Assembly (NCBI GenBank): GCA_964449275.1
Contig: CAYVAM010000001.1
Location: 585 to 64,584, forward strand
Length of the DNA: 64,000 nt
Reading direction: 5' to 3'
Source of the DNA: an uncultured Anaerolineales bacterium
GTDB lineage: Bacteria; Planctomycetota; Phycisphaerae; FEN-1346
In this document: in pieces, positions 29,193 through 64,000 of the stretch
Layout of the letters: every line of letters begins with the position of its first letter
Numbering within the stretch: position 1 is the stretch's first letter
Made by a program: the position numbers and the translations under genes
Notes under the pieces: model-generated
Database searches by the model: none
Seen by the model: the letters and a program-made list of their open reading frames with translations, nothing else
What the model was told of the DNA's origin: nothing

Positions 29193-29212
29193 TGATGCGG
29201 ATGTTAGCACCT

Positions 29213-34742: not shown

Positions 34743-34777
34743 GAACGGCGATTTCCGGGCCAGGAACGGCGATTTCC
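34743..34777. promoter_or_regulatory. Tandem direct repeat GAACGGCGATTTCC x2 (21-bp period), about 200 bp upstream of the PEP-CTERM gene
   Basis: Exact 14-bp repeats at 34743-34756 and 34764-34777. The spacing of two helical turns suggests a response-regulator-type binding site. Confidence 0.3.
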
Positions 34778-43183: not shown

Positions 43184-43394
43184 CCCGCCGGCGCCGCCGG
43201 GCGGCCCACGGAAACCGCCGCCTGGGCCCGCGTCGCCCTCAGCGATCTGCCGCGAAAGGGTGAGACGGCGGAGTTTCGGGCCGATGACTTTCCATTCCTC
43301 ATCGCCGGCGCGGATCTGGGCCTTGGCTTCGGCCAGATGAAGATGCGCCGCGAGTTCCCCGGCCTCCGACTGCTGCTGCCTGTATCGGCGGACG

Positions 43395-43823
43395 ATGCTG
43401 GAGGACCTTCGCCTGCCGGACGGCGAACTGTACGATGAGGATTTCTTCGCCTACGCCGACGAGGCCGACGTGGGCTGGCGGGCCCGGCGGCTGGGATGGA
43501 AAAGCCTGTACGAGCCCTCGGCCTTGGTGTACCATCATCAGGTGGCCCCCTCGGGCAGCGTGAGTCCGCTGCTGGTCCGGCTGGTGGAGCGGAACCGCAT
43601 CTGGGTGGCCGTCAAGAACTTCCCGACTTGGCTCCTCGCCTGCGGGGTGGCGTGGTTGGTGTGGCGGACATTCCGGCAGGTGTGGGGTGGCCTGACGCGC
43701 CGGGGCCGGGCCGGTTGGGCGTCGGGCGGCTCCGGGAGGTCTTCCGCCGGTTCGGCATCGCCGCACGCGACATCGCTCTGCGGGACTAAGCAGGAGCAAG
43801 GAAATCTTTCCGAACAGCGGTAG
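43395..43823 (+). pseudogene. Glycosyltransferase family 2 C-terminal fragment (N-terminal catalytic half missing)
   Basis: EDFFAYADEADVGWRARRLGWKSLYEPSALVYHH is the typical GT2 C-terminal block. An in-frame stop lies at 43338. No DxD domain is present upstream. It abuts MITE copy 43820-43897. Confidence 0.5.
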
Positions 43824-43897
43824 CGCCGGGGTTTATCCCCGGCGCGGAACCGCCGTCGGCCTGACTATCCGGCCGCCGGGCATGAAGCCCGGCGCTA
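43820..43897. repeat. MITE-like element copy in inverted orientation and diverged (GTAGCGCCGGGGTTTATCCCCGG ... CCGGGCATGAAGCCCGGCGCTAC)
   Basis: Its TIRs are the reverse-complement forms of those at 10881 and 20089. Confidence 0.7.
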
Positions 43898-44014
43898 CGG
43901 ACTTGGGTGCACGCCAAGTCAGCCGCCGAATTCGGATTGACTTCATCGCTCCTGCTTAGCCATGCCGGCCATTTGGCCGCCGTGCTTGCGCAGCGCGTTT
44001 CTAAGGATATATAC

Positions 44015-45136
44015 ATGACCATCCCCGTCTTTCGGCCGAGTTACGGCGAGGGCGAGTTCGAGGCGGTCCGCGAGGTCCTGGCCTCCGGCTGGGTGGGTCT
44101 GGGTCCGAAGACCGCCGAGTTTGAGAAACGCTTCGCCGAGTATCTGGGCGTGCCCGACGCCGTCGCCTTGAACAGCGGGACGGCGGCCCTGCACTTGGCA
44201 ATGATCCTGGCCGACGTCCGGGACCATGAGGTCATCACCACGCCGGTGACCTTCGTCTCGACCAACCACGCCATCCTGTACTGCGGCGGCGAGCCGGTCT
44301 TCGCCGATGTCGAACCGGACACCGCCAACATCGACCCGGAGAGCGTCTCGCGCCTCGTGACCGACCGCACCCGGGCCGTCGTCTGCATGCACTACGGCGG
44401 CCGGCCGTGCAAGATGGATGCCCTGACGGCAATTGCCCGCGAGCACGACCTGGTGCTGATCGAGGACGCCGCCCACGGCTGCGGTGGGCAATGGCATGGG
44501 CAGAAACTCGGCACCATCGGCGACTATGGGTGCTTCAGTTTCCACGCCGTCAAGAACCTTGCCACCGGCGAGGGCGGCATGATCGTGACCGGCAATCCCG
44601 AAGAGGTGGTCCGACTCCGCCGCCTACGATGGCTCGGCATCACCAAAGATACCTGGAGCCGCGAGACCTTCACCCAGTACTCCTGGTACTACACGGTCGA
44701 GGAGGTCGGCTACAAGTACCACATGCACGATATCTCGGCAGCGATCGGGTTGGTGCAACTGGCTCGGCTGCCGGACCTGAACGCACGCCGCGCCCAACTG
44801 GCCAAGCGGTACGACGAGGCGCTGGCGGGGCTGGACTGGATCCGGCGCCCCGTTGTCGAGCCCGACACGAAGCCCGCCTGGCACAACTACGCCATCCAGA
44901 CCGACCACCGCGACGCCCTGAACCTGTACCTGGCTGAGCGCGGTATCTCGACCGGCGTCCACTACATCCCCAGCAACCACTACGAGATGTACAAGGCGTG
45001 CCGGGGCGAGACGCCTGTGGCCGAGGCCCTCTGGAAGCGGCTGCTCACCCTGCCGCTGTACCCGGACCTGACGGATGAGGACTTCGAGCGGGTTGTCGCC
45101 GCGATCGGCGACTTCGGCCGGGAACAGGGTCTTTAG
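44015..45136 (+). CDS. DegT/DnrJ/EryC1/StrS family sugar aminotransferase (PLP-dependent)
   Basis: Motifs IPVFRPSYGE, NSGTAALHLA, EDAAHGCGG, SFHAVKNLATGEGG (Lys site). AAGGA RBS lies before the trimmed start. Confidence 0.8.
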   Translation: MTIPVFRPSYGEGEFEAVREVLASGWVGLGPKTAEFEKRFAEYLGVPDAVALNSGTAALHLAMILADVRDHEVITTPVTFVSTNHAILYCGGEPVFADVEPDTANIDPESVSRLVTDRTRAVVCMHYGGRPCKMDALTAIAREHDLVLIEDAAHGCGGQWHGQKLGTIGDYGCFSFHAVKNLATGEGGMIVTGNPEEVVRLRRLRWLGITKDTWSRETFTQYSWYYTVEEVGYKYHMHDISAAIGLVQLARLPDLNARRAQLAKRYDEALAGLDWIRRPVVEPDTKPAWHNYAIQTDHRDALNLYLAERGISTGVHYIPSNHYEMYKACRGETPVAEALWKRLLTLPLYPDLTDEDFERVVAAIGDFGREQGL

Positions 45137-45164
45137 TCCCTGAGACCCGAGCCGCGACCGTAAG

Positions 45165-46154
45165 GTGTGGCGCATCCCTGCAAGCGCTGTCATGCTGACC
45201 GAAGCGAAGCATCTCGCCTGCATCCTGTGCGGTCGGCCCGGCGAACCGCGGTTCGAGAAGGCCGATAAGTTCCCTCCGCGCGAGCGGTTCCAGGTGGTCC
45301 GCTGCCCGGCGTGCGGGCTTCAATGGGTCAGCCCCCGGCCGGAATCGGAGGATCTGGCCCGCTACTACCCTGAGACGTACAGTTGGAAGCCCCCGGCTGA
45401 GGCGGAAACCGAGTCCGCCGTCCACCGCCTGGAACGCGGGTACCGGTTTCACCTGCTGCGGTTTGAGTTGCGGCAACTCCTCCGCCATGCGAACCTCTCG
45501 CCCGGCAACGCGGTGCTGGACGTCGGCTGCTCGTCCGGCGATCGGCTCCTGGTCATGCGGGGGGCGGGCCTGGAGCCGGCGGGTGTGGAACTCGGGCCGG
45601 CCGCCGATTACGCCCGCGAGCGGCTGGGCCTGGACGTCCGACGGGGCACCCTGCCGGAGGCCGGCTTCGAGGCGGGCCGATTCCACGCCGTCACGCTCTA
45701 CAACGTGCTGGAGCACCTGCCGGACCCGCGGGCCGTGCTGGCCGAGGCCCGCCGCCTCCTGGTTCCCGGCGGTCGGCTGGTCATCCAGGTGCCCAATGCG
45801 CGGAGCCTTCAGGCCCGGCTCCTCGGCCGGCGGTGGGCGGCGGTGGACGTGCCGAGGGATCTGTTCTACTGGACGCCCGCCCTTCTGGGCCGGCTTCTGG
45901 AGACGGAGGGTTTTCAGGTGACGCGGGTGGTCCATCGGACGAGCCTGCTGCACCCGCCGACCGCGGCGGTGAGCCTGGTTCCGTGGGCAGACCCGCAGCG
46001 GTTCTGGGCGGCGGAGGCGGGCGGCAGCGCCGCCGGCGGCCTCGCGCGCCGGCTCGTGTGGGCCGCCGTCACGGTGGCGGTGATGGGGCCGGCGTGGGTG
46101 GAGTCCGCCCTCGGCGCCTCGGCCATTCCCACCGCCTTTGCGCGGAAAGGATGA
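45165..46154 (+). CDS. Class I SAM-dependent methyltransferase with an N-terminal Zn-ribbon (CxxC...CPxC)
   Basis: Motif I VLDVGCSSGD, post-I GLEPAGVE, motif IV region LVPGGRLVIQVPN. The GTG 45165 start is uncertain. ATG 45192 is an alternative. Confidence 0.65.
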   Translation: MWRIPASAVMLTEAKHLACILCGRPGEPRFEKADKFPPRERFQVVRCPACGLQWVSPRPESEDLARYYPETYSWKPPAEAETESAVHRLERGYRFHLLRFELRQLLRHANLSPGNAVLDVGCSSGDRLLVMRGAGLEPAGVELGPAADYARERLGLDVRRGTLPEAGFEAGRFHAVTLYNVLEHLPDPRAVLAEARRLLVPGGRLVIQVPNARSLQARLLGRRWAAVDVPRDLFYWTPALLGRLLETEGFQVTRVVHRTSLLHPPTAAVSLVPWADPQRFWAAEAGGSAAGGLARRLVWAAVTVAVMGPAWVESALGASAIPTAFARKG

Positions 46155-46244
46155 CCTGCCGGGGCGGCGAGTCGGCTCGCGCGCGGCCGTCCGGAGCGCA
46201 GACGTTCTTACTGTCAGAATGTCCGCACGGAAGGAAATCGGGAC

Positions 46245-47252
46245 ATGAGCGAGTGGCAGATTCTCAATGCCACGGACGGTTGTGTGGAGGCGGTCTCGCG
46301 TCTGCGGGGCGCCACCATTTTCTACTCGACGCGTTGGGCGCGGGTGCTGGCCCGGGGATTCGGCTGCCCCGTCCGGGTGGTGGCGTTGGTGGAGCCTGGT
46401 GGACGGTTTTCAGCGGCCCTGCCGGCCTGTTTGCTGAAGATGGGCCCCATTCGCATGCTGTACGGTGTGTTCCCGAAGGGGAACTTCGTCGGCGACGCCG
46501 GGGCGGTTGCGGAACACATCAATGGGCTCGAGGAGATCTTCCGCCGGGAGGGCCTGCACGCGGTCCGGGTCATCGCCTGCGAGGATGCCCTCATCCGGGG
46601 TCTGCCCGGGGCCTCGCGGGCGCGGCAGATGCGGCACGTGCTGAGGATCGACGGCCGGTCGGCCGAGCAGATTTGGCGCGATTACCCCAAGAAGATCCGC
46701 CGGGACGTCCGCGTGCCGATGAAGGCCGGCTACGTGACCCGGCCGATGCGGCGGGAGGAGTTTCCGACGTTCCACAGGATGATGGGCGAGGTGTTTGTCC
46801 GCAACGCCGCCGCCACCGGGCCCCCGCCCGAGTTTTATGAGGCCGTCTGGGACGAGATGGTCGGCGACGGAACGGCCGAGTTCATCGTGGCCGACAAGGA
46901 CGGCGACGCGCACGCCGCGGTCGTTGCCATCCACGACGGGCCGACCACCTACTACTTTGCCGGGTGCAGTTGGACCGGTTCGATGCGCGATGGGGTGAAC
47001 GACCTGACGGTCCACGCGATGATTGCCTCGGCTGCCCGCCGGGGGGCTGAGCGGGTCGATATGCTCTCCAGTGATGCACGCCACGTCGGCCTGATTCGGT
47101 TCAAGGCCAAGTGGGGGGCCGACCAGTGGCCGTTCGACATCCTGGAATGGTGGTTCGCGCCGCTCCGCCATCTTCTCTGGAAGACCGGCATGGCGGTGGC
47201 GGGCACGCGCGCCGGAGCGGCCCTGATCCGCCGGCTTCGCGGACAGAGGTAG
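46245..47252 (+). CDS. FemAB-like / GNAT-fold acyltransferase (Acetyltransf_6-type)
   Basis: 335 aa with the pattern common to FemAB-family proteins in polysaccharide loci (...EFIVADKDGDAHAAVVAIHDGPTTYYFAG...). GGAAGGA RBS is present. Confidence 0.5.
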   Translation: MSEWQILNATDGCVEAVSRLRGATIFYSTRWARVLARGFGCPVRVVALVEPGGRFSAALPACLLKMGPIRMLYGVFPKGNFVGDAGAVAEHINGLEEIFRREGLHAVRVIACEDALIRGLPGASRARQMRHVLRIDGRSAEQIWRDYPKKIRRDVRVPMKAGYVTRPMRREEFPTFHRMMGEVFVRNAAATGPPPEFYEAVWDEMVGDGTAEFIVADKDGDAHAAVVAIHDGPTTYYFAGCSWTGSMRDGVNDLTVHAMIASAARRGAERVDMLSSDARHVGLIRFKAKWGADQWPFDILEWWFAPLRHLLWKTGMAVAGTRAGAALIRRLRGQR

Positions 47253-47270
47253 ATATGCCGTTGCCGGCCC

Positions 47271-47355
47271 GCGTTTCGCGCGGTGGGTCTCCGCGCCCAC
47301 CGCGTGCAAAAGGGCATTTGTCGGGCTGCGCGGCGGGTACGGAGACCCGCCGCGC
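47271..47355. repeat. REP-like palindromes (cgtttcGCGCGGTGGGtctccgcgCCCACCGCG and GCGCGGCGGGTACGGAGACCCGCCGCGC) after the FemAB-like stop
   Basis: Same family as 22183-22210 (GCGCGGCGGGTCAGGAGACCCGCCGCGC) and 28957-28984. Confidence 0.75.
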
Positions 47356-47414
47356 ACGACGTAGCATTGCAGCATTAGGTGCGCCGTTGCCGGCCGACAC
47401 CCCCGTCCTGCGCG

Positions 47415-48164
47415 TCAGCGCTTCCGGAGCCGCCAGAACGTGTGGCTCCGCAGCGGACGGGGCGTCAGGCGGACCGCCCAGCGATGCAGCCACTCCAGCA
47501 GCCGCGTCATCCGGGGGCCGGTCGGCCACCGCCAGCGGCGAAGCAGAAACGTGGCGATGGCAGGGAGCGGCATCGTGTGGTCGTAGGCAAGACGGGCGAT
47601 CGCCAGACCCGGTACCGAGGCGACGACCCGGCGGACGGCCCGCGGGCTGGTGTTCAGTATGCCCCGCTCCGGCGGGCGGACCCAGGCGAACATCCGCTGG
47701 TACGGGTTCCAGGGGTTCGGCTCGATGATGGCGACCTCGCCCCCCGTCTCCAGGACGCGGGCCATCTCGCACAGGGCAGGGCGGATCGCGTCCCGGCCCA
47801 GATGGTGCAGCACTCCCATGCAGCAGACGCGGTCGAATGCCCCGTCGGCGAACGGCAGGCGGGTGACATCGGCCACGGCCAGTCGGCGGCCGGGCCGCTT
47901 CCGGCCCTCGCGGACCAGGGCCTCCGAGAGGTCGATGCCGACGTAGTCGGCCGCGCCGGCCCGGAGGGCGGCCTCGCCCACGCCGCAGCCCACGTCGAGG
48001 ATTCGGCTTCCCCCGTGAAACATGCAGCGGTAGCGGCGTTCGGCAAGCCGGGCCACATAGCCCTGACCGAATCGCCAGCGCACCAGGGCGGCGTCGCGGT
48101 CGGAGAACCGGCTGAACCGTTCCTCGGAGGAACAGGTGGTCTGGTCGACAGCGTCGGCGTCCAT
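47415..48164 (-). CDS. Class I SAM-dependent methyltransferase
   Basis: Motif I ILDVGCGVGE. Also LPFADGAFDRV and LETGGEVAIIEPN. Confidence 0.7.
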   Translation of the reverse strand: MDADAVDQTTCSSEERFSRFSDRDAALVRWRFGQGYVARLAERRYRCMFHGGSRILDVGCGVGEAALRAGAADYVGIDLSEALVREGRKRPGRRLAVADVTRLPFADGAFDRVCCMGVLHHLGRDAIRPALCEMARVLETGGEVAIIEPNPWNPYQRMFAWVRPPERGILNTSPRAVRRVVASVPGLAIARLAYDHTMPLPAIATFLLRRWRWPTGPRMTRLLEWLHRWAVRLTPRPLRSHTFWRLRKR

Positions 48165-48180
48165 AGGAACCCGGCGTCTT

Positions 48181-49578
48181 TCAGAATGCCCCTCGGGCGA
48201 TCATCCCCGCTGCGAAAATGGCGACAATGAGGCCTGCTACCAGCGCCGCCCGCCCTGCGACGGGGCTGTGCAACTTGAACCGGATCAGCAGGAGTTTGGC
48301 GACCCACGCCGGCACCAGCGCGCCGACAAACGCCACGGAGATGCCCGTCAGGTAGTAGGCCTGGTAGAGCGGAATCGCCAGTCCGCACAGCAGGGCAAAC
48401 TTGCTCCATTCGATGCCCGTGACCCAGCGGGCCAGCCCGGAGCCGTTAAGCAGCGGGTCCAGCGCACACCGCTGGGCCTCGAAGGCCATCCCGAACGCCA
48501 AGATCGACAGCGGGAGCACCAGGTGCTGGTACTCGGGCCCGAAAATGCCCAGAAGGTGTTCGGGCAGCACCATGAACAACCCCAGGATGGCCGCGGCGGC
48601 CAGTCCGGTTCCCGTCAGTGCCCGGCGGACGAGTCCGGCCAGCACGCCGGCGTCGCGGCTGCCGTGGGCGTCGCTGACGGCCGGCAGCAGGGCGACCGCC
48701 ACCGGCCAAAGCAACACCTCATATCCGCGGGTCAGACTCCACAGCGGCACGTAATACCCGACGCTGCGATAGCCCTGCCCGTGCGGGTCCATCCACCAGA
48801 TGATGCAGATGGCCAGGTACTGGAGGATGAACGCCGCCGCCAGGGGCGTAAACAGGGCGGCTCCGACGCGCAGCCGCCGAAGCGGGCGGTACCCGGTCAG
48901 GCTCACCCTCGCGCCGCACCGGCGAAGGACGACCATCAGCAGGCCCAGGGCGAAGACCGCGGCCGAGCCGTACCAGAGGGTCCACCCGTGGACGATTTGC
49001 TCCCAAGGTCCGGCCAGAAGGGCAACGGCTGCGCAGATGCCCAGCCGCGGCAGATGGGTGACTGCGTTCTGGAGCAGGGAGTACTGCATCCGCTGAAAGC
49101 CGGCGAACACGCCGATCGTCTGCTGCATGAGGGTAGCGGCGACGACCCAGACCGCCACCAGGCGAACAAGCGGGGCCAAGCGGAGCATCTCGTCGGCGCG
49201 CCCGGCGGCCCCCACGGCCCGGGCAAGCCGCGGGAGGACCTCGGGAATCAGCAGCACGAAGGCCCCCAGCACCGCCCCGCCGACCGCCGACTGGAGCAGA
49301 CCGGCCCCGACCGCCTGGCCGGGCTTCGGTCCGCCCATCGCCGCCAGGCGACGCGAGATGAGCAGCGTGGAGGCCTGGCCCGCACCGAGGTCCGCCAGGA
49401 GCGACCCGATGCCGGAAATCAGCAGCAGCACCCCCAGTTGGCCGACCACATCGACCGAATAACGCCACGCTACGATGACCGTACTGGCGAACGAGACGAC
49501 GTTCACCAGGCCGGAGTCCACGAGCAGGAGGACGACGTTGCGGGAGAGGCGTCCGGTGATGCTTTGAAGCCTGGCCAT
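48181..49578 (-). CDS. Polysaccharide/oligosaccharide flippase (Wzx-like, MOP superfamily)
   Basis: About 466 aa with roughly 12-14 TM helices. Start is trimmed to MARLQSITG. The 5' part of the track ORF overlaps the upstream methyltransferase gene. Confidence 0.6.
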   Translation of the reverse strand: MARLQSITGRLSRNVVLLLVDSGLVNVVSFASTVIVAWRYSVDVVGQLGVLLLISGIGSLLADLGAGQASTLLISRRLAAMGGPKPGQAVGAGLLQSAVGGAVLGAFVLLIPEVLPRLARAVGAAGRADEMLRLAPLVRLVAVWVVAATLMQQTIGVFAGFQRMQYSLLQNAVTHLPRLGICAAVALLAGPWEQIVHGWTLWYGSAAVFALGLLMVVLRRCGARVSLTGYRPLRRLRVGAALFTPLAAAFILQYLAICIIWWMDPHGQGYRSVGYYVPLWSLTRGYEVLLWPVAVALLPAVSDAHGSRDAGVLAGLVRRALTGTGLAAAAILGLFMVLPEHLLGIFGPEYQHLVLPLSILAFGMAFEAQRCALDPLLNGSGLARWVTGIEWSKFALLCGLAIPLYQAYYLTGISVAFVGALVPAWVAKLLLIRFKLHSPVAGRAALVAGLIVAIFAAGMIARGAF

Positions 49579-49628
49579 GGGAGCCTTTCCCGGAACGGCC
49601 GCGGGCGGCGACCGTCGATGCGGGGGCC

Positions 49629-50312
49629 TCACTCGGCGTCGACCCGGAAGAGCATCAGGGCAACCGCCTTGCCCTGGTAGTCGACCTGGGTGATCGTCGC
49701 GCCGACCTCGCGGAACAGGACCGGATAGTCGTGGGCGAACGTGTAGTCGTTGATGCTGAACGATTTGCCGCGGAGGTCGGGGGTCCGCACCTGCTCCTCG
49801 ATGCACCAGAGCGTTCGGCCGGTTACGCGGACCAGTTCGCGGATGCCGTCGCGAACGTCGTCCGGCGGCACGTGCATCAGCACGCCGTGCGTCACGACGG
49901 TCTTGAACGCCGCGTCGGCCAGCGGCAGCCGGGTCACGTCGCCGCAGACCAGGGGGACGTCCAGGGCGAACTCCCCGTGGACCTTGCGGAGCAGTTCCAG
50001 GCTGATGTCCAGGCCGTAGAGTCGGCACGGAAGGTCCGATTCGTCGTGGAGCATCTTCAGGTTGCGACCGAACCCGCAGCCGACCTCGAACACCTCAGTG
50101 GGATGGACCTCGCGGAGCCGCTCCAGCAGCCAGCGATTCGATTCGTGGAGTTCACGCTGATACGGTTGCCGGGCAAACCGGTCGGACCACTCGTTCCAGA
50201 ACCGCTTCGGATCGTAGCCGTTGCGGAGAAATCGCAGCGTGCCGTTTCTTAGATTCACCAGCCACCGCGCCAGGCGAAAGCGTGTCAGGAAGATTTTCAA
50301 TCGGTTAATCAC
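49629..50312 (-). CDS. Class I SAM-dependent methyltransferase
   Basis: Motif I VFEVGCGFGRN. Also LPLADAAFKTVVTHGVLMHV. It overlaps the Alg13-like gene by 8 nt. Confidence 0.7.
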   Translation of the reverse strand: MINRLKIFLTRFRLARWLVNLRNGTLRFLRNGYDPKRFWNEWSDRFARQPYQRELHESNRWLLERLREVHPTEVFEVGCGFGRNLKMLHDESDLPCRLYGLDISLELLRKVHGEFALDVPLVCGDVTRLPLADAAFKTVVTHGVLMHVPPDDVRDGIRELVRVTGRTLWCIEEQVRTPDLRGKSFSINDYTFAHDYPVLFREVGATITQVDYQGKAVALMLFRVDAE

Positions 50313-53615: not shown

Positions 53616-53630
53616 GATTTCGGTTGTCCC

Positions 53631-55741: not shown

Positions 55742-55765
55742 CCTCAGGGCTCTCTCGGAAAGGTT

Positions 55766-57238: not shown

Positions 57239-57380
57239 CGTCGTGTTCCCCAGTGGCGGCTGGAGGGCAGGATTCCCGACCCCCGAAAGATAAGCCTGCC
57301 GCCCCGTCAAGTCAAGCGAAAGGGCTGCCGCTGCCGGCCCCACTTCGCCACACGCGGGCACGGCGACGGGCGGGCGGCGG

Positions 57381-57409
57381 TTGCATCCGCCCCGGTAGCC
57401 CCGTATACT
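57381..57409 (+). promoter_or_regulatory. Sigma70-like promoter: -35 TTGCAT, 17-nt spacer, -10 TATACT
   Basis: In the divergent intergenic region, 34 nt upstream of ATG 57443. Confidence 0.45.
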
Positions 57410-57442
57410 CTGCCGGTCGCGTTTCAGGTTCCGTCCCAAAAG

Positions 57443-58201
57443 ATGAGGCACGCCGAATCCGACAATCAGAAACTGAGGGGTAAGGCCCGGCTTTTCGACC
57501 GTTGGATGCCGCAGGGCGTCGAGACGCTGCTGGACGTTGGCTGTGCCTACAGCCCCATGCTGCACCTGCTGGGCCGAAAAGCCCGGCTGGCCTGCGGCGT
57601 GGAATACGACTTCGAGAAACTCCGGCAGGCCGGCCGACGGTTTCCCGAGAATTGCTACATCCGCGCTTCCGGGGAGACCCTGCCGCTCGAGAGCGAGTCG
57701 ATGGACGTGGTCACCTTCTTCGAAGTGCTGGAACACGTGGGGCGCGAGCGGCGGTTCCTGGAAGAGGTACACCGCGTGCTGCGCCCCGCCGGCCGCATTA
57801 TCCTGAGCGTGCCCAACAAGGGCTTGGCTGAACCGCTCGACATGGATAACCTGGTTTTTGCCCCGGCCTTGAAGGTCGCCAAACGCCTGGGCCTGTTTCG
57901 CCGCGTCAGCGATTACCACCTCAGGCACCACCGCCATTACAACGTTCAGGATTTGGAAAGGCTCTTCGACGGTCTGTTCCGGATCGACGCGGTCTACTAC
58001 GGGGGACTGGTGGCCAACCAGATCGGGTTCCTGATCTACAAGTCCGGCACGGTTGGTCTGCGGCTGCTGGGTCTCGCCGAGGACGCGCCGCTGATGAAGC
58101 GCATGGAGGCCTGGATGAACACGGTGACCGACTGGGATTTCGACCATACCTACGGCCCGCGGTCCGACAAATTGGCCGTCCGCGCTCACCGGATCGGGTG
58201 A
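57443..58201 (+). CDS. Class I SAM-dependent methyltransferase
   Basis: Motif I LLDVGCAYSP. Also DVVTFFEVLEHV and LRPAGRIILSVPN. It is the tail of the track's artefactual 54839..58201 ORF. Confidence 0.7.
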   Translation: MRHAESDNQKLRGKARLFDRWMPQGVETLLDVGCAYSPMLHLLGRKARLACGVEYDFEKLRQAGRRFPENCYIRASGETLPLESESMDVVTFFEVLEHVGRERRFLEEVHRVLRPAGRIILSVPNKGLAEPLDMDNLVFAPALKVAKRLGLFRRVSDYHLRHHRHYNVQDLERLFDGLFRIDAVYYGGLVANQIGFLIYKSGTVGLRLLGLAEDAPLMKRMEAWMNTVTDWDFDHTYGPRSDKLAVRAHRIG

Positions 58202-58217
58202 AGGAGCCGATGCGTTT

Positions 58218-59825
58218 ATGCCTCAGGCCTCTGCGCAACCGTCTCGAAGGTCGACCCGGAGCGGGCGTCTGTTGCCGGTCCGCGCGAGTCTGCGCGAGCA
58301 CCCGGCTGCCTGCGCCTGGCTGGTCGCCCTGCTGATCGGATTGGCCGTCTTCGCCGTCGGCGCCGTCACCGACCCGTCGTTGGGCGACGAGAATTACCAT
58401 TTCCGCAAAGCGGCCCACTTTGCCCGGGCGGGCCGGCGCCTTACGCACGATCCCGACTATGGCCCCACCGTGCCGCCGGGCATCCCGTACTATGACGGGC
58501 CGCTGTGGCACGGCCTGTTGGCCGCCGTCTGGCGCGTGACCGGACCGAGCGTCCTGGTTGCCCAAGCATACCAGGCCCTGTGGGTGGTGCTGTTTGTGGG
58601 GCTGGCGTGGACGGCGGGCCGGCATCTGGGCGGCCCGGCGGCGGCGTGGTGGACAGCGCTGATAGCGGGGACGCTGCCCGTGACGCTGTTCTTTGGCGTC
58701 GTCCTCTACGTGGAGGCGGCCATGCTGGCGCTGTTGGCCGGGTGCGCCGCACTGCTGATTCGCCGCCGCGCGCTGCTCGCGGGCATCGCCTTCGGGGCGG
58801 CGTTTCTGGCGCGCCCCGCAGTGGCGGTGGCCTACCCGGCCTTTCTGGTGGGGTGCCTGCTTCTGGAAGAGCCGGCGTGGTCGAAGCGGCTGCTGAAGGC
58901 GTTTCTCGGCAGCCTCGGCGCCGCCCTGCTCATCACGCCGGACCTCGTGTGGCGCAAGATGAACCTGGGCACCATCGGCGTGGTTTACCTGACCCGCTCA
59001 GGCGGCGACCCCCACATTCCCGAAGCCATCCGCCGGATGCTGCTTGAGAAAGGGCCTGAGACGTTCTACTGGGCGGCGAGCGTTCTCAAGCCGGCGGACG
59101 TTCTCATGCACCTTGGCCTGGTGGTGCTGGTCGGGGCGGTGCTCTCGCTCGTTCTGATCCGCCGGCTGGGTCGGCCCGCCCAGGCGCTGTGGGCCGTGGC
59201 CGTCGCATTTCTCGTGCCCCAAGTGGCCATCATGGCCGTCAACCGGTTTCCGGACGTTCGGTACCTGATGCCCGTGTTCCCCGTGTTCGTGCTGCTGGCG
59301 GGGTGGGCTGTGTCGGCGGCGCTGGGGCGAAGCGGGAGACCTGTCCTGGCCGGGCTGATTATCCTGGTAGCCGTGGCCCAGGCCGGCAGCGTGGTCGCGT
59401 TCGTGTATTATCGCCGGCAGGTGGCCCCGGAGGCGATGGAGGCCATGCGAACGCTGGGTCGGCTCGACGTGCGCCACCCGCCGGGCTTTGTGGTATGCCC
59501 GGAGGCTTCGGTGACTACCTACAGCGGGCGGCCGATTCTTTGGGCGGCCATCAACCCGGGCGCCTTCTTCTTCCGCTGGTCTCCCGAGAAGCAGTGGACG
59601 CTGCTGGACTACTACGGTGTCGAGTTCATCGCCGTGCCGCAACACCGCGTCTACGACGACACGAAGACGAAGCACACGGGCGGTTTCCCGCGGAGTTACG
59701 TCCAGCGGCTGCCGGAACTGCCGTATGTCGCCGATGGCCCGGTGGTCAATCGGGGCGGGTTGACCGTTTACCGGGTCCGCCCCCGAGGGTCGGTGCCGGG
59801 TGGGGCTTCGTGTCCGTCCGGCTGA
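58218..59825 (+). CDS. GT-C fold membrane glycosyltransferase (ArnT/PMT-like, GT39/GT83-type)
   Basis: 535 aa with about 11 TM helices. DENYHFRKA acidic motif in the first periplasmic loop. Paralogous to 59768..61588. Confidence 0.6.
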   Translation: MPQASAQPSRRSTRSGRLLPVRASLREHPAACAWLVALLIGLAVFAVGAVTDPSLGDENYHFRKAAHFARAGRRLTHDPDYGPTVPPGIPYYDGPLWHGLLAAVWRVTGPSVLVAQAYQALWVVLFVGLAWTAGRHLGGPAAAWWTALIAGTLPVTLFFGVVLYVEAAMLALLAGCAALLIRRRALLAGIAFGAAFLARPAVAVAYPAFLVGCLLLEEPAWSKRLLKAFLGSLGAALLITPDLVWRKMNLGTIGVVYLTRSGGDPHIPEAIRRMLLEKGPETFYWAASVLKPADVLMHLGLVVLVGAVLSLVLIRRLGRPAQALWAVAVAFLVPQVAIMAVNRFPDVRYLMPVFPVFVLLAGWAVSAALGRSGRPVLAGLIILVAVAQAGSVVAFVYYRRQVAPEAMEAMRTLGRLDVRHPPGFVVCPEASVTTYSGRPILWAAINPGAFFFRWSPEKQWTLLDYYGVEFIAVPQHRVYDDTKTKHTGGFPRSYVQRLPELPYVADGPVVNRGGLTVYRVRPRGSVPGGASCPSG

Positions 59826-61588
59826 GGCGCGGCGTCGCCTCGGTGGGCGGCCTGGGCCGGCCGTTCCGGTGTTTCGGGTTCCTCCGGCATCCGCCACGCT
59901 CGTGGCATTCGCTCGGGATGCACCTGGTAGACGAGGAACTTCCCCTCCGCGTCGCCGTCGTAGTCGGGCGGGTAGACCGGTTCCAGGTACGGCCGGCGGT
60001 CCAGCGTGGCGATCCAGTCGCGCGGATACTCCATGACGGGGCGGGTAGGGACGGCGGGCGGCCCCCGGCGCGTCGGGTGGACGGCGATGTAGTCGATGCC
60101 GAGCACGCTCAGTATCGTGGCCTGGGCCGGCTCCGTGGTGGTGAAAAAGAACCGTGGCAGCACCGCCGCCCAGAAGATAGGCCGGCCGGTCAGCGTCGTC
60201 AGGTTCTCTTCCAGGTACAGGAAGCGGGCATCCGGTTCGGTGTGTCGGCGAATCCATCGGTAGGCGGCAACGGTCTGCTCGGGCAACTGCCGATTGGCAT
60301 GGACAACAGCCGGCGCGGCGGCCAGTTGAACCGCGCACAGGACCACCAGCGCGCTTGCGCCGATGCGGGCGGGCCGGCGCCATCGGTCGGTCCGCGAGAA
60401 GGGGCGGAGCGCCACCAGCGCCCCGGCCAGCAGTAAGCCGGCCGGAAGCGTCACCGGTTCCAGGTACCGCACGTCGTAGGCCCTGCGAAGCATAACGACG
60501 TACGCCGCCAGGTAGAAGAGCAGCGGCAGACCGCAGACCACAATGCTCCGGGGAAGGTGGGAACCCGAGATTGCCGGTTCGTTGCCGGAGGCTTTGCTGG
60601 GCCGACGCTTCAGGAGCCGGCGAACGCGGCCGACCGGCGCACCGACCGTCACCGCGACGGCCCAGCCGAGAGCCACCAGGCCCCCGACGCCGAACATCTT
60701 GAGATCATGCGTCGGGTTGAAGATGCTGAGCGGCACGGCAGTCCGTTCGGGCACGGGCATCCGGTTGGAGGCTAGCAACAACCAGTCGGGGTAGAACGGG
60801 GTCGTGCTCACGTAGTGCCGTAACTTGATCGGTTGGCCGAAATGGACGCTCTGCCAGATCAGGTCCGGGGCCACGGCCACCAGCGTGACCGCGATCGCCA
60901 GCCCCACCCGGCCCAGGCGACGTTTCCAACTGTTCCCCATAACGAGCAGCGCCGCGACAAGGGTCGGCGGAATCAGAACCGAGGCGGTGGTCTGCTTTGT
61001 CAGGTACATGCCCGCCAAGGCCAGCCCCATCAGCACCGCCCGCCGACGCAACAGAAAATAGAAAGCGGCGGCGGCGAAGGCCAGCACCGGCACCTCCAGG
61101 TAAAACGTCATGGCAAAGAGCAGGTTCATCGGGACCGTCAGCACCAGGACCCAGGCCCACACCCCCCCGCGATGGCCGTACAGTTCCCGCCCGCACAGGT
61201 ACGTGAAGATGCCGAGGGCGAAGAGAAACGCCCCGTGATAGACCTGGGCCGCCCACAGGGCCGGCGTGCCGAGGACCTTCCACACCAGGGCCAGGCCCAT
61301 GTGCCAGAGCGCCGCCCCCCAGTAGAGCACTGCGGCGAGCCCCTCGGGCGGATACGCCGGATCGTGCGTCACGCGGAAGTCCGGCCATTGTGCCTCGAAA
61401 CAGTTGATGGCATGGCGAAAGTGCCTGGCCTCGTCGCCGAGGATCGGTTCCGTGCCGTACGTCCACGCCCCTGCGTATCCGCAGACCAGCAGCGTCGCGA
61501 GCGAGACGGCCAGCAGCCGCCGACGGTTCGACGCCGGCTCTCCGTCCGGCAGCAGGTTCGCGGGATGGTTCGAGTGCGGACGGGTCAT
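59768..61588 (-). CDS. GT-C fold membrane glycosyltransferase (ArnT/PMT-like), paralog
   Basis: 606 aa, multi-TM. GDEARHFRHA motif. Its 3' end overlaps the convergent paralog by 58 bp. Confidence 0.6.
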   Translation of the reverse strand: MTRPHSNHPANLLPDGEPASNRRRLLAVSLATLLVCGYAGAWTYGTEPILGDEARHFRHAINCFEAQWPDFRVTHDPAYPPEGLAAVLYWGAALWHMGLALVWKVLGTPALWAAQVYHGAFLFALGIFTYLCGRELYGHRGGVWAWVLVLTVPMNLLFAMTFYLEVPVLAFAAAAFYFLLRRRAVLMGLALAGMYLTKQTTASVLIPPTLVAALLVMGNSWKRRLGRVGLAIAVTLVAVAPDLIWQSVHFGQPIKLRHYVSTTPFYPDWLLLASNRMPVPERTAVPLSIFNPTHDLKMFGVGGLVALGWAVAVTVGAPVGRVRRLLKRRPSKASGNEPAISGSHLPRSIVVCGLPLLFYLAAYVVMLRRAYDVRYLEPVTLPAGLLLAGALVALRPFSRTDRWRRPARIGASALVVLCAVQLAAAPAVVHANRQLPEQTVAAYRWIRRHTEPDARFLYLEENLTTLTGRPIFWAAVLPRFFFTTTEPAQATILSVLGIDYIAVHPTRRGPPAVPTRPVMEYPRDWIATLDRRPYLEPVYPPDYDGDAEGKFLVYQVHPERMPRAWRMPEEPETPERPAQAAHRGDAAPQPDGHEAPPGTDPRGRTR

Positions 61589-61597
61589 CGTTGTCCC

Positions 61598-62227
61598 TCA
61601 GGCGTCACCCTGTTCGAGAGCGCATTTGCCGTGGCCGCCGTCTCGCGAGTCGGCTCTGTCGGACGCCGAGGGGCCTGCCTCGCCGCGGTAGCGGATGACC
61701 TGGGCAGGAACCCCCGCTGCCACGGCCTGGTCGGGTACGTCGTGGCGAACAAGGGCGGCAGCGCCGATGACGGCCCGGTTGCCGATCGTCACCCCCTTCA
61801 GCACCGTCACGCCGGCGCCGAGCCAGACGTCCTGGCCGACGTGGATCGGCTCGGCCTCGACCGGCTGTGTGGCGACCGGGGTGTTGGGGTCGGCATAGCC
61901 GTGGTTGAAGTCCACCAGGTTGGCGTGCGGGGCGATGATTGTGTCGGCCCCGATGCAGATGTCGGCGTTGCTGGTGATTACGCCGTACTCACCGATGTAA
62001 ACGTTGTCGCCGAGTTCAATGCGGCCGCTCTCGGCGGTCGAAAGCACCACCCCGCGCATCAGCCTCACGCCGTTGCCGATCACAATGGGCCGGTGTCGGG
62101 CGCACGCCAGGCAGACGCCCGGCTGGATCGTGCATCGGTGTCCGAGGCGTCCGCCGCGCAGCCGCAGCACCAGCCGCCAGAACGTGACCCGGCAGAAGTT
62201 GATCAGTCGGATTGCAGTGCCGAACAC
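61598..62227 (-). CDS. Hexapeptide-repeat (left-handed beta-helix) sugar O-acetyltransferase
   Basis: Hexapeptide repeats (IGNGVRLMRGVVL..., IGEYGVITSNADICIGADTII..., VGQDVWLGAGVTVLKGVTIGNRAVIGAAALV). Confidence 0.7.
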   Translation of the reverse strand: MFGTAIRLINFCRVTFWRLVLRLRGGRLGHRCTIQPGVCLACARHRPIVIGNGVRLMRGVVLSTAESGRIELGDNVYIGEYGVITSNADICIGADTIIAPHANLVDFNHGYADPNTPVATQPVEAEPIHVGQDVWLGAGVTVLKGVTIGNRAVIGAAALVRHDVPDQAVAAGVPAQVIRYRGEAGPSASDRADSRDGGHGKCALEQGDA

Positions 62228-62281
62228 GACTCCGGGCCTCCGCTTTCAGGCGATGCTGCCGCAGGTTGCAGTCCGGGACGT

Positions 62282-62947
62282 TTACCGCTGGCGGATCACC
62301 ACGGCCGGAACGCCCCCGGCGACGACTCCCGGAGGCAACCGGCCCGAGACAACCGCCCCGGCGCCCACGACCGTGCCGCGGCCGACGTGCGAACCCGGCA
62401 GGAGTACCGCCCGGTACCCGATCCACACGTCGTCCTCGACGGTAATCTCGGCCGTCCGGATGCCTTGGGAGATAATCGTGGCTCTCGGATCGTCGAAGAC
62501 ATGGCCGCCCGTCACCGCGCCGGCGCCGCGGGTGAACAGGACGTTGCGTCCGAGGCGAATCGTGCTGCCATGATGGCACAGCAGTTCCGCGCCGCTGTAA
62601 ACGATTGAGCCGTCGCCCACGATGATTCGCCCGTTGCCGCCCAGCGTATCGAGCGTGGCCCGGCCGATGAAACACCGCCGGCCCAGGGTCACGTTCCAGT
62701 CGATCCGGGCCAGCGGATGGATCAGCGACCGCGTCACAAGAGCCCGGACCAGGTTTACCAGTGGACGCCACAGGATGCACGTGGCCAACCCGCGCATGAG
62801 CGTCTCGCGAAGCACATGGCCGCCCACCCGTGCAAACTGCCCGTCGGTTGTCTCGTGCATCGGGACCTCGAACTCGCCCGATGAAGCACCGGCCACGGAC
62901 GCACGACGCCGGTTTGGCCATTTAACATAGGCTGTCGGTGCAGGCAT
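62282..62947 (-). CDS. Hexapeptide-repeat acetyltransferase (second copy)
   Basis: Left-handed beta-helix repeats (IIVGDGSIVYSGAELLCHHGSTIRLG..., VEDDVWIGYRAVLLPGSHVGRGTVVGAGAVV). The start is uncertain. M at 62947 or 62860. Confidence 0.6.
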   Translation of the reverse strand: MPAPTAYVKWPNRRRASVAGASSGEFEVPMHETTDGQFARVGGHVLRETLMRGLATCILWRPLVNLVRALVTRSLIHPLARIDWNVTLGRRCFIGRATLDTLGGNGRIIVGDGSIVYSGAELLCHHGSTIRLGRNVLFTRGAGAVTGGHVFDDPRATIISQGIRTAEITVEDDVWIGYRAVLLPGSHVGRGTVVGAGAVVSGRLPPGVVAGGVPAVVIRQR

Positions 62948-63004
62948 GTCAAGGATGGATGGGTCCAGTGTCGCTGTGGCGTGACAGGCGAAAAACTTGA
63001 GCCT

Positions 63005-63032
63005 TGACGGAAGGCGGCCGGTGTTATATTCT
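63005..63032 (+). promoter_or_regulatory. Sigma70-like promoter: -35 TTGACG, -10 region TGtTATATTCT (extended -10)
   Basis: In the divergent region between the acetyltransferase operon and the ArsR gene, about 55 nt upstream of ATG 63088. Confidence 0.4.
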
Positions 63033-63087
63033 AGCACCGGAATATGGTTCGCGGCGGGACTGTGCGTGTCGTATGCGGAGAGGTCTT

Positions 63088-63462
63088 ATGGGCTCTCGAA
63101 AGGCGGACGAATGGGCCAAGAAGTTGAGGGTCCTGTCGCATCCGACCCGGCTGATGATCCTCGAGGAACTTCTGAAAGGCGTCAAGTGCGTCAACGATAT
63201 GACCGAGTTGCTCGAACTACCTCAACCGAACGTCTCGCAGCATTTGATGGCCCTCCGGGAGGCTGGTCTCGCTGAGTGTCGGCGGCATGGGCTGTTTCGC
63301 TGTTACTACCTGCCGAAGCCGGCTCTGGTCCGCGGCCTGTTCGATGTTCTTGGAAAGGATTACCGCACAGGGGTTCCCTCCCGGGATAAGATCGTGGCGG
63401 CTTCGGGGCAGGCCCAGCGAAAGACGCACGCTCGGCGGAAGGTGAGGAAGCGAGGGGTTTGA
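63088..63462 (+). CDS. ArsR/SmtB family transcriptional regulator
   Basis: Winged HTH (LSHPTRLMILEELLKGVKCVNDMTELLELPQPNVSQHLMALREAGL). The canonical CVC metal site is absent (VKCVND). GGAGAGG RBS is present. Confidence 0.7.
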   Translation: MGSRKADEWAKKLRVLSHPTRLMILEELLKGVKCVNDMTELLELPQPNVSQHLMALREAGLAECRRHGLFRCYYLPKPALVRGLFDVLGKDYRTGVPSRDKIVAASGQAQRKTHARRKVRKRGV

Positions 63463-63488
63463 GCCCCGCCTCCGGCGGTTCGACCGTT

Positions 63489-64000
63489 ATGGATTTGGCG
63501 GAAAGAAGCGAAATGGTGAACGTGGCGGGTAAGACCATGAGACGTCCCGGGGTCGAGGTATTCGAGCAAGGGGCCTCGCGGTACGACGCCTGGTTCGAAA
63601 CGGCTCGCGGGCGGGCGATTTTCGCAGCCGAAGTCCGATGTCTCCGACACCTCAGCGCCGACCTTCCCCGGCCCTGGCTCGAGGTGGGGGTGGGCACGGG
63701 GCGGTTTGCCGCGGCCCTGGGGATGGATGTGGGCGTGGATCCGGCAATGGCGCCGTCACAATATGCCCGAGCCAGGGGGATAGCGGCAGCGGCGGCGCTG
63801 GGGCAGGCGTTGCCCTTTGCCGACGGTCAGTTCGGAGCCGTCTTTGTGATTGTGACTATCTGCTTTGCGGATGATCCATCCGGGTTACTGGCGGAGGCGC
63901 GGCGGGTCGTGAAAGGGGATGGCGGAGTCGTCCTGGGCATTGTGCCGGCAGGCAGTGCGTGGGCGAGGCTGTACGCGTCGAAGGGGATGTCGGGCCACCC
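63489..64000 (+). CDS. Class I SAM-dependent methyltransferase (5' partial; runs off the window end)
   Basis: It is not in the ORF track because no stop falls inside the window. The frame is open from 63489. Motif I LEVGVGTGRF. Also LPFADGQFGAVFV and VKGDGGVVLGIVP. The start may be 63489, 63513 or 63537. Confidence 0.6.
   Translation, partial: MDLAERSEMVNVAGKTMRRPGVEVFEQGASRYDAWFETARGRAIFAAEVRCLRHLSADLPRPWLEVGVGTGRFAAALGMDVGVDPAMAPSQYARARGIAAAAALGQALPFADGQFGAVFVIVTICFADDPSGLLAEARRVVKGDGGVVLGIVPAGSAWARLYASKGMSGH

Follow-up and report, generated by a model that had tools for sequence, protein, structure and literature searches.

A conserved, methyltransferase-rich gene cluster for glycan assembly and modification, with a putative HprK/PEPCK-fold enzyme pair, in an uncultured member of the Planctomycetota

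What would be built by a glycan gene cluster that is crowded with methylating enzymes and lacks a polymerase? This question is raised by a stretch of 64,000 nucleotides (contig CAYVAM010000001.1, positions 585 to 64,584; hereafter referred to as the window) from a genome labelled as an uncultured Anaerolineales bacterium and placed by GTDB in the Phycisphaerae (Planctomycetota), in which a preliminary description, made from the sequence alone, had reported a methyltransferase-dense glycan locus. That report was borne out: the region at 43362-62860, with 18 intact genes, one glycosyltransferase family 2 (GT2) pseudogene and a coding density of about 94%, is a real, tightly packed cluster for glycan assembly and modification, unusually rich in methylating enzymes. 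The reading that we favour, at slightly better than even odds (a probability of roughly 0.55), is that it represents one copy of a conserved cassette building a short, non-polymerised, heavily decorated polyprenyl-linked glycan, which would be transferred on the outer side of the cytoplasmic membrane. As a general kind, lipid-linked glycan assembly that involves tailoring enzymes is already known; what is new is the conserved combination, across very different genomes, of two class B radical S-adenosylmethionine (SAM) enzymes and a pair of HprK/PEPCK-fold proteins with an Alg14/13-Wzx-GT-C backbone.

The G+C content of the window is 65-70%, so lists of its open reading frames (ORFs) are crowded with shadow frames. 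Genes were picked by third-position G+C content and then annotated with Pfam and NCBIfam, and some starts, including those of the DegT gene (by orthologue length) and of the second hexapeptide gene, were set in a start-site review. These searches found every component named in the preliminary description, the gene list of which was nevertheless incomplete, as it omitted the two HprK/PEPCK-fold genes at 53631-55741. Six or seven class I SAM methyltransferases had been announced for the interval 43395-64000; there are six, five in the cluster and a sixth outside it, beside an ArsR gene. No class I methyltransferase domain was detected by Pfam among the approximately 27 other genes of the window, so their concentration here does not simply reflect the background of the genome. 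If six methyltransferases are assumed to be placed at random among 48 genes, simple combinatorial arithmetic gives a chance of C(21,6)/C(48,6) = 0.004 that all six fall within a stretch of 21 genes. The statement that no Wzy, Wzz or initiating phosphoglycosyl transferase is visible also held, since no such domain was found by Pfam among the genes of the entire 64-kb window, and with these three lacking, the locus is, as proposed, not a standard O-antigen or exopolysaccharide (EPS) locus.

Ten of the genes form an operon on the minus strand, running from 57238 down to 47415 with overlaps of 4-8 nt or short gaps. Two further units lie on the plus strand, one made up of a methyltransferase gene and a GT-C gene, and the other of the DegT, methyltransferase and FemAB-like genes. 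The divergent promoter region at 57239-57442 (no strand) was defined by the alignment of five orthologous regions, which revealed a conserved TTGACT-17-TATCTT element and a conserved GTATAC block, and no small ORF common to the five. A promoter-like match on the minus strand (57315-57287) lies upstream of the ten-gene operon. An ORF of 807 aa at 55766-58189, which would have encoded a radical SAM protein with an N-terminal extension, was rejected as a high-G+C artefact: the orthologues are 482-492 aa long, and the opposite strand codes for a methyltransferase.

The assembly backbone begins with a split GT28-type glycosyltransferase of the Alg13/Alg14 kind, as previously suggested. The two halves are encoded by adjacent genes on the minus strand, and both score above the Pfam gathering threshold (GA). 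The Alg14/EpsE/PssD-like membrane-anchor half (50808-51302), which has one hydrophobic segment, matches Alg14 (E = 1e-8; 35.8 bits, GA 27), and the Alg13/EpsF/PssE-like half (50305-50811) matches Glyco_tran_28_C (E = 8.8e-9; 36.1 bits, GA 22). The gene for the latter overlaps the downstream methyltransferase gene (49629-50312) by 8 nt. The top NCBIfam matches were PssD (E = 3.9e-25) and PssE (E = 1e-20), the Alg13-like half also matching WelK, but both remained under the equivalog cut-offs (89 versus 110 and 74 versus 120). Two small adjacent genes for an Alg14-like anchor and an Alg13-like catalytic half, linked to Wzx, are likewise found in the EpsE/EpsF, Cps14F/Cps14G and PssD/PssE systems; split enzymes of the EpsE/F type extend a lipid-linked first sugar by the second one (PMC8993221). 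Further relatives of the split enzyme are eukaryotic Alg13/14 and archaeal Agl24. The cassette differs from the Eps, Cps and Pss loci in having no linked Wzy, Wzz or priming transferase, and those loci have not been described with Alg14/13 genes lying between radical SAM, kinase-like and methyltransferase genes.

The gene at 48181-49578 (minus strand) encodes a Wzx-like flippase of the MOP superfamily with about 10 hydrophobic segments. Its identification, in line with the preliminary description, comes from positional orthologues, seven of 10 of which match Polysacc_synt (best E = 4e-12); the orthologue in locus L005 is 83% identical and carries PF01943. The two paralogous GT-C glycosyltransferase genes reported in convergent overlap share 58 nt, and their products are 30% identical over 530 aa. 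The first (58218-59825, plus strand; 535 aa) is ArnT/PMT_2-like, scoring 27.5 bits against the PMT_2 cut-off of 26.1, and the second (59768-61588, minus strand) falls below that cut-off with 23.1 bits. The pair is kept in L001, L005 and L013 and, as far as the contig end, in L006. The AlphaFold model of the first GT-C (mean predicted local distance difference test score, pLDDT, of 84) matched AglB/STT3 and ArnT. The best Foldseek E-values were those to AglB/STT3, and superposition on ArnT (5ezm) gave template modelling (TM) scores of 0.60/0.60, the target-length-normalised values being 0.60 for ArnT versus 0.35 for AglB. The modelled structure resembles oligosaccharyltransferases and ArnT about equally, and it neither favours nor disfavours the protein O-glycosylation or S-layer decoration proposed in the preliminary description; the fold would fit either a pyrophosphate-linked oligosaccharide or a phosphate-linked monosaccharide as donor. 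In the first loop, G56-D57-E58 are invariant in 17 sequences, and the first extracytoplasmic loop is where GT-C enzymes usually carry their catalytic acidic residues; no WWDxG-type motif was seen in the conserved columns of the GT-C alignment. No PDB entry was matched by sequence, either by the GT-C or by the Wzx profile.

The two B12-dependent radical SAM enzymes of the preliminary description both have B12-binding and Radical_SAM domains above the Pfam GA, and both have a CxxxCxxC motif. One (hereafter referred to as the g14 type; 55766-57238, minus strand; 490 aa) is encoded by the first gene of the operon, has a CPFWCIFC motif at residue 201 and is 75-92% identical to its counterparts in Phycisphaerae-type loci and 56-58% identical to those in low-G+C loci. 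The other (the g11 type; 52125-53615, minus strand; B12-binding, E = 2.4e-23; Radical_SAM, E = 2.1e-21) has a CPCRCVFC motif at residue 222 and is 56% identical to orthologues on contigs of 37-42% G+C. The B12 domain and the CxxxCxxC motif are shared with class B radical SAM enzymes as a whole, including the C-methyltransferases TokK, GenK and Fom3, as well as TsrM, PhpK-type enzymes, HpnJ/HpnR and BchE; the cassette enzymes differ in sitting in a lipid-linked glycan cassette, and no precedent for a cobalamin-dependent radical SAM enzyme in an O-antigen-type context was found among the 12 top-ranked papers of a search of the open-access full-text literature. The best NCBIfam matches were to a P-methyltransferase family, BchE, HpnJ and ApyD, none of them reaching its cut-off (best radical SAM score 223 bits versus 575), and the relatives found by sequence in the PDB were TokK, AprD4 and TsrM. 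The two enzymes would modify unactivated carbons, most likely by C-methylation.

The class I methyltransferases of the cluster differ in how widely they are conserved. That at 49629-50312 (minus strand; Methyltransf_25, E = 2e-15; weak NCBIfam matches to a Pse-associated methylase and MftM) is a core gene with an orthologue in all full cassettes, including the low-G+C loci, at 37-38% identity. The last gene of the operon (47415-48164, minus strand; Methyltransf_11, E = 9.5e-20) has orthologues at 62-79% identity in L001, L005, L008 and L023, and the gene hidden under the spurious 807-aa ORF (57443-58201, plus strand; Methyltransf_11, E = 6e-17) encodes a protein 84% identical to its L005 orthologue. 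The methyltransferase at 45165-46154 (plus strand; Methyltransf_23, E = 1.2e-21) is 80% identical to its L005 orthologue, and the accessory enzyme at 51299-52132 (minus strand; Methyltransf_25, E = 3.7e-19) is shared only with L005 and L013.

Between the two radical SAM genes lie the two genes omitted from the preliminary description, which encode P-loop proteins of the HprK/PEPCK fold on the minus strand: an L type (54680-55741; Walker A motif ARGGTGKT; NCBIfam HprK_rel_A, E = 1.9e-7) and a K type (53631-54683; P-loop GRGGVNKT), the latter recognised from a fold model and a family profile. Neither had a match in the Pfam release used; K homologues carry the newer Pfam family PF27840. K matched HprK_rel_A and ScmC weakly in NCBIfam, and the nearest named families for the pair were HprK-related kinase A/B and ScmC, all weakly matched (ScmC scores of 28 and 15.5 bits versus a cut-off of 125; ScmC and HprK_rel_A matches at 28-35 bits versus cut-offs of 125-200). 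An AlphaFold prediction for K that drew on 21 sequences had a pLDDT of 89 and a predicted TM score (pTM) of 0.89. It gave 75 PDB matches at E ≤ 0.001, and 50 of the 50 among the matches listed were HprK/P or ATP-dependent PEPCK; the PEPCK match spans nearly the whole K chain, N-terminal domain included (TMq of about 0.5 for Escherichia coli PEPCK). A profile of 39 diverse family members aligned in register to the catalytic core of Lactobacillus casei HprK/P, the family consensus lHaaav...GRGgagKT...GDD corresponding to MHGVLV...GDSGVGKS...ADD. The phosphotransfer-site His, the Lys-Thr/Ser and the Gly-Asp-Asp are kept in both types across the family; in K, the conserved residues are His143, the P-loop Lys164 and Asp181/182, and L has equivalents. 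L has the full HprK/PEPCK motif set (His, GxxGxGK[ST], Asp-Asp) and K has all of it but the Gly before the P-loop Lys, which is always replaced in the K type (by Asn here and by His, Phe or Tyr in relatives). The pair therefore shares fold and motifs with HprK/P and ATP-dependent PEPCK, from which it differs in its length of about 350 aa, its invariable occurrence as two paralogues, the Arg at position 2 of the P-loop and its context, which is glycan biosynthesis rather than the phosphotransferase system, gluconeogenesis or, for ScmC relatives, peptides made by ribosomes and then modified post-translationally (RiPPs).

L and K are paralogues (29% identity). The L stop codon overlaps the K start by 4 nt, and the order L-then-K was constant in every examined locus long enough for both genes, which suggests that the pair may form a heteromeric enzyme. 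Homologues of the K type numbered about 25 in a set of 5.8 billion proteins, with those of the L type about equally numerous, and a hidden Markov model search of 1.84 billion representatives found 105 family clusters (50% identity) at E ≤ 1e-30 and 369 at E ≤ 1e-10, one of them including a Methanoculleus protein. About 25 family-bearing loci were fetched, including that of the methanogen, and wherever the contig was long enough the neighbours were glycan-biosynthesis genes. No part of the locus is more distinctive or more widely conserved than the L-K pair. The open-access full-text literature yielded no description of a cassette combining radical SAM, HprK-like and glycosyltransferase genes and, on ScmC, nothing relevant.

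The conservation of the cassette was assessed in a near set of loci (L001-L013) and in 21 further loci, mostly of 37-45% G+C, that were recovered from metagenomes by searching with distant K-type sequences. Four loci came from a survey of GTDB species, each represented by one genome; all are in metagenome-assembled genomes (MAGs), of which one is labelled Phycisphaerae, one Planctomycetia and two Anaerolineales. Gene order was near-identical in L005, L013, L001, L008, L009, L011 and the partial contig L006, with protein identities of 50-92%. A comparison of synteny, which the preliminary description had named as a check, showed that relatives carry these genes in unchanged order, at 75-92% identity; the gene set is therefore not accidental. 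Because the loci were compared side by side, a fixed core could be told from variable arms. The core consists of a divergently oriented methyltransferase gene and the series radical SAM (g14 type), L, K, (radical SAM, g11 type), (methyltransferase), Alg14, Alg13, methyltransferase, (radical SAM), Wzx and methyltransferase, together with at least one GT-C gene. The arms comprise DegT/Methyltransf_23/FemAB/GT2 genes, hexapeptide acyltransferases, GT2+DUF2304, Formyl_trans_N and LPG_synthase_TM. The modular assembly inferred in the preliminary description thus applies to the arms, which vary between genomes, but not to the core, which is kept across loci.

The smallest version, in L009, has radical SAM, L, K, radical SAM, Alg14, Alg13, methyltransferase, Wzx and GT-C genes between sugar-catabolic genes and an integrase; L010 has a Wzx-like protein, L, K, Alg13, Alg14, membrane proteins, two methyltransferases and YdjC, so that both of these minimal loci keep Wzx, L, K, Alg14/13, a large membrane protein and a methyltransferase. 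In L017, L018, L021, L023 and L025, the core is permuted as GT-C, Alg14, Alg13, methyltransferase, Wzx, radical SAM, L, K, radical SAM, with no Wzx match detected in the core of L023. Identity between the low-G+C loci and the window is 56-58% for the two radical SAM enzymes, 40-43% for L, 32-35% for K, 26-29% for GT-C and 24% for Wzx. These loci also hold DUF218, GT2+DUF2304, MBOAT plus AlgX-like O-acetylation and sugar epimerase/dehydratase genes. The GT2+DUF2304 pair occurs in L005, L013 and L021 and is absent from the window. As a separate observation, the cassette is also present in two MAGs bearing the label "uncultured Anaerolineales", at 80-92% (L006) and mostly 62-69% identity (L008; 69% G+C), which suggests mis-binning, mislabelling or recent transfer. 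Toxin-antitoxin-like genes (HEPN plus nucleotidyltransferase) adjoin low-G+C cassettes (L021, 14546-15314; L025, 11210-11968), and mobile-element genes were seen in L023 (IS200-type transposase), L011 (rve_3 fragment) and, as mentioned, L009; such neighbours suggest that the cassette may be mobile.

The L-K pair also lies in glycan clusters that have no radical SAM gene or no Alg13/14 gene, namely L024 (GT2, DegT, Alg14, Alg13, Wzx, L, K), L028 (UDP-GlcNAc 2-epimerase, GT2, DUF354, L, K, GT4), L032 (radical SAM, L, K, two GT4 genes), L033 and the Methanoculleus locus L036, in which L and K stand together among DUF354, DegT, LbH acetyltransferase, GFO_IDH oxidoreductase, several GT2, GT4 and methyltransferase genes. 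It is thus tied strictly neither to radical SAM enzymes nor to Alg13/14, and its presence in the glycan clusters of Bacteria and of Methanoculleus makes it a glycan cluster component in both domains.

The variable arm of the window would be centred on an amino sugar. The DegT aminotransferase, the FemAB-like acyltransferase and the two hexapeptide acyltransferases that had been listed are all supported by Pfam. The first, a sugar aminotransferase of the DegT/PseC/ArnB type (44015-45136, plus strand), matches DegT_DnrJ_EryC1 (E = 3.7e-116), its best NCBIfam scores being 321 bits for PseC and 307 bits for ArnB, both below the cut-off. The FemAB-like acyl- or aminoacyl-transferase (46245-47252, plus strand) matches Acetyltransf_6 (E = 1.5e-10) and FemAB (E = 2.4e-6) and, weakly, TIGR03019, a PEP-CTERM-associated FemAB family. 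The hexapeptide-repeat acyltransferases lie on the minus strand: one is WbbJ/WcaF-like (61598-62227; Hexapep, E = 1e-14; WbbJ, E = 2e-29, below the cut-off), and the other (62282-62860; Hexapep, E = 1.5e-11) shares 81% identity with its L001 orthologue, counted from residue 60 of the long ORF. The GT2 pseudogene reported at the left edge (43362-43789, plus strand) is a C-terminal remnant without a Pfam match; tblastn with the 349-aa L005 GT2 showed that only residues 167-283 (85% identity) and 324-349 are kept, the N-terminal catalytic half and residues 284-323 being gone.

We propose the following route. An initiating transferase encoded elsewhere would yield a lipid-pyrophosphate-sugar, to which the split Alg14/Alg13 enzyme (EpsE/F or PssD/E type) would add a second sugar. 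Class I methyltransferases would then O- or N-methylate the intermediate, the two class B radical SAM enzymes would alter unactivated carbons, and the translationally coupled L-K pair would phosphorylate the intermediate as a heteromeric phosphotransferase. The Wzx-like flippase would carry the product across the membrane, and one or both GT-C enzymes would attach it to an acceptor, with proteins, lipids and other envelope glycans as candidates. The accessory arm (DegT, FemAB-like protein, methyltransferase and hexapeptide acyltransferases) would supply an acylated, methylated amino sugar; in relatives, the arm also includes a GT2, GT2+DUF2304 and a formyltransferase, whereas here the GT2 has decayed to a pseudogene. 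A short product is to be expected from a single glycosyltransferase for chain building without a polymerase. It is most likely methylated, probably phosphorylated and most likely transferred by the GT-C enzymes. While the gene identities, folds, motifs, operon packing and conservation are shown by the data, the order of the steps, the substrates, the phosphorylation, the C-methylation and the acceptor are inferred. In several respects, the scheme resembles archaeal and eukaryotic N-glycosylation (Alg7/AglH, Alg13/14/Agl24, flippase, STT3/AglB), with which the cassette shares the Alg14/13 step, a flippase, a GT-C enzyme and, in Methanoculleus, the L-K pair, although the cassette GT-C, with 535 aa and a small C-terminal domain, differs from STT3/AglB. 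For phosphorylation followed by methylation there is a possible precedent in WbdD of E. coli O9a, reportedly a kinase and methyltransferase that caps the glycan with a methyl phosphate; this enzyme is said to have a eukaryotic-type protein kinase fold and to act as a chain terminator in an ABC-transporter pathway, and it has no sequence or fold relation to L-K.

Several points weigh against this scheme. Neither the product nor the acceptor has been observed, and no initiating phosphoglycosyl transferase of the WbaP/WecA type was found in the window or the fetched flanks. The Wzx candidate has no Pfam or NCBIfam match of its own. GT-C enzymes of the PMT_2/ArnT type normally take polyprenyl-phosphate monosaccharides, which fits poorly with the en-bloc transfer of a Wzx-flipped pyrophosphate-linked glycan, and a GT2 able to make such a polyprenyl-phosphate donor is missing or degenerate in the window. 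The proposed phosphotransferase activity of L-K derives from fold and motifs, the K type lacks the canonical P-loop Gly, and all L-K homologues with a source name are called "hypothetical protein". Finally, non-methylating chemistry is also known for class B radical SAM enzymes, and the nearest families mix methylases and non-methylases.

A bolder extension of the scheme is tentative and, in our view, rather doubtful. On this view, L and K would form a heteromeric phosphotransferase acting in lipid-linked glycan assembly, ancient, hitherto unrecognised and common to Archaea and Bacteria, which in this cassette, together with the two radical SAM enzymes, would install an undescribed decoration, such as a C-methylated and/or (methyl)phosphorylated sugar, and the Alg14/13-Wzx-GT-C backbone would be the bacterial counterpart of the archaeal/eukaryotic lipid-linked-oligosaccharide route.

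The cluster could instead be an ordinary Wzx/Wzy-dependent O-antigen or EPS locus with its polymerase, chain-length regulator and initiating transferase encoded elsewhere in the genome. Loci of this type typically contain a Wzx-like flippase, a second-sugar transferase of the EpsE/F type, acetyltransferases and an aminotransferase, wecA also lies outside enterobacterial O-antigen clusters, and the PEP-CTERM proteins in the window, together with the weak match of the FemAB-like protein to the PEP-CTERM FemAB family, hint at an EPS system. However, Wzy, Wzz and export genes were found in none of the more than 10 related loci with 8-10 kb of flanking sequence, and neither Wzy nor Wzz was found among the genes called in L001-L005, L010-L013 and L036 or the flanking ORFs scanned in the metagenome loci. 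The conserved core contains a GT-C enzyme in their place, and a single chain-building glycosyltransferase argues for a very short glycan. We consider this explanation unlikely.

A second alternative starts from the amino-sugar arm (DegT, FemAB-like protein, Methyltransf_23 methyltransferase and acyltransferases), which resembles the front end of an Arn-type route. The cluster would then be mainly Arn-like: an amino sugar made by DegT, N-acylated or formylated, would be loaded by a GT2 onto polyprenyl phosphate, flipped, and added by an ArnT-like GT-C to lipid A or another envelope lipid. The cassette shares with the Arn pathway an ArnB-like DegT, as reflected in the ArnB score given above, and GT-C enzymes of ArnT-like fold and size, the first of which superposes on ArnT. 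Some GT-C homologues are named "4-amino-4-deoxy-L-arabinose transferase-like" by JGI, and some relatives have GT2+DUF2304 and Formyl_trans_N genes adjoining the GT-C pair. On the other hand, Pfam found in the window no equivalent of the ArnA dehydrogenase/decarboxylase, ArnC, the ArnD deformylase or ArnE/F, the sole GT2 is a pseudogene, and there are two GT-C paralogues. DegT is absent from L009, L010 and the fetched parts of the low-G+C loci, all of which have a GT-C or a GT-C-sized membrane protein. The remainder of the cassette has no Arn counterpart, and Alg14/13, Wzx, the radical SAM enzymes and L-K are left unexplained. An Arn-like route is thus improbable for the cluster as a whole, and may describe the accessory arm rather than the core.

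The two other alternatives concern L-K. The pair might be a nucleoside triphosphate-dependent accessory factor, such as a chaperone loading or reactivating the cofactor of the B12-dependent radical SAM enzymes, or a non-catalytic scaffold, rather than a glycan kinase. P-loop chaperones for B12 enzymes exist (MeaB, for example), class B radical SAM genes flank L-K on both sides in most loci, and the Walker A motif of the K type is degenerate. This role is very unlikely, as L-K is present without a radical SAM gene in the fetched stretches of L010, L024, L028, L033 and L036, and the catalytic His, Lys and Asp-Asp are kept in both types across the family. Still less of a case can be made for the radical SAM-L-K-radical SAM-methyltransferase block as a RiPP-type peptide module within a glycan locus, in which a precursor peptide would be the substrate of the HprK-like proteins acting as kinases, by analogy with phosphorylated lasso peptides or SynChlorMet cassettes: ScmC and HprK-related kinase A/B do come from RiPP-like neighbourhoods, ApyD and RiPP C-methyltransferase families are among the radical SAM matches, and a review (PMC8498205) discusses HPr kinase homologues as tailoring (phosphorylating) enzymes of lasso peptides, but we rejected it as a main model, because the ScmC and HprK_rel_A matches are far under the cut-off, the cluster has no PqqD or RiPP recognition element gene, SPASM domain, protease, exporter or conserved small ORF, its only sizeable gap at 94% coding density is the conserved divergent promoter, and L-K without radical SAM genes, in the five loci just cited, is always among glycan genes.

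Under the reading that we favour, a conserved cassette for a short, decorated lipid-linked glycan, the locus joins this kind of assembly to two enzyme types without an established role there, class B radical SAM and HprK/PEPCK-fold proteins. The envelope glycan chemistry of the Planctomycetota and of most uncultured lineages is uncharted, and the cassette offers a compact, conserved and transplantable unit for testing. Its main value lies in the L-K family as a testable lead, since the reaction of this pair, once assigned, would annotate hundreds of gene clusters. A new glycan modification, possibly involving C-methyl or phospho-methyl sugars, would bear on cell-surface biology, phage/host recognition and glyco-engineering. 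Were the product an ordinary methylated oligosaccharide, a gene-model correction and a new cluster family would still result, and nothing more.

At the right edge of the cluster, an ArsR/SmtB regulator (63088-63462, plus strand; Pfam HTH_5, NCBIfam HTH_metalloreg) is followed after 50 nt by the sixth class I methyltransferase (63513->64000, plus strand; weak NCBIfam methyltransferase match), which is cut by the window end. The ArsR gene had been described as a divergent member of the locus. It is indeed divergent in position, but it was found in none of the syntenic loci compared, and it was therefore rejected as a regulator of the cluster. Its absence from these loci and its position upstream of its own methyltransferase indicate that the two probably form a separate ArsR-methyltransferase unit; the segment at 63088-64000 looks like a metal(loid)-responsive unit outside the glycan cluster.

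Repeats are present at and beyond the other edge. Two inverted hairpins resembling repetitive extragenic palindromic (REP) elements lie at 43820-43899 (no strand), between the GT2 remnant and DegT, and are short partial copies of repeat families at 10871-11022 and 20078-20317. The latter are REP-like or miniature inverted-repeat transposable element (MITE)-like sequences of 98-142 nt, 94-98% identical, which form GC-rich hairpins (GTAGCGCCGGGCTTTATGCCCGG), and the repeat is tandemly duplicated at 20.1-20.3 kb. A 30-nt palindromic hairpin between convergent genes at 47327-47356 (no strand), 93% identical to a copy at 22184-22213, is probably a bidirectional terminator or a REP element. A 38-nt hairpin (GTTAGCCGGCGGGCTTGCCCGCCGCG) is present in three copies at gene ends (2965-3067 and 22244-22281), two of them 65 nt apart.

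Elsewhere in the window, two inverted 7-nt tandem-repeat arrays (GTTCAAG/GTTCAAA; 17930-18532), each of about 42 nt and 91-97% complementary, enclose a segment of about 500 nt located between a GH57 gene (16737-17912, minus strand) and a GT4/glycogen-synthase-like gene (18531-19868, minus strand), with no Rfam match at 17930-18532. At 28900-31100, G+C content falls to 0.63, and two ORFs (29213-29740; 29775-30593, minus strand) have a third-position G+C of 0.66-0.68 and no Pfam match; this segment may be foreign or non-coding DNA. In an 866-aa protein (26312-28912), a hydrazine-synthase-alpha middle domain (E = 3e-18) was recognised along with weak haem c-binding motifs, and upstream of the gene for this protein lie a UDP-sugar dehydrogenase-like gene and then two sulfatase genes. 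The only RNA gene found in the window by Rfam and tRNA scans is a tRNA-Met (CAT) gene at 38819-38893, outside the locus. Two proteins with PEP-CTERM tails (11222-14614 and 33672-34925), one of them with dockerin-like repeats, imply the existence of an exosortase system in this genome.

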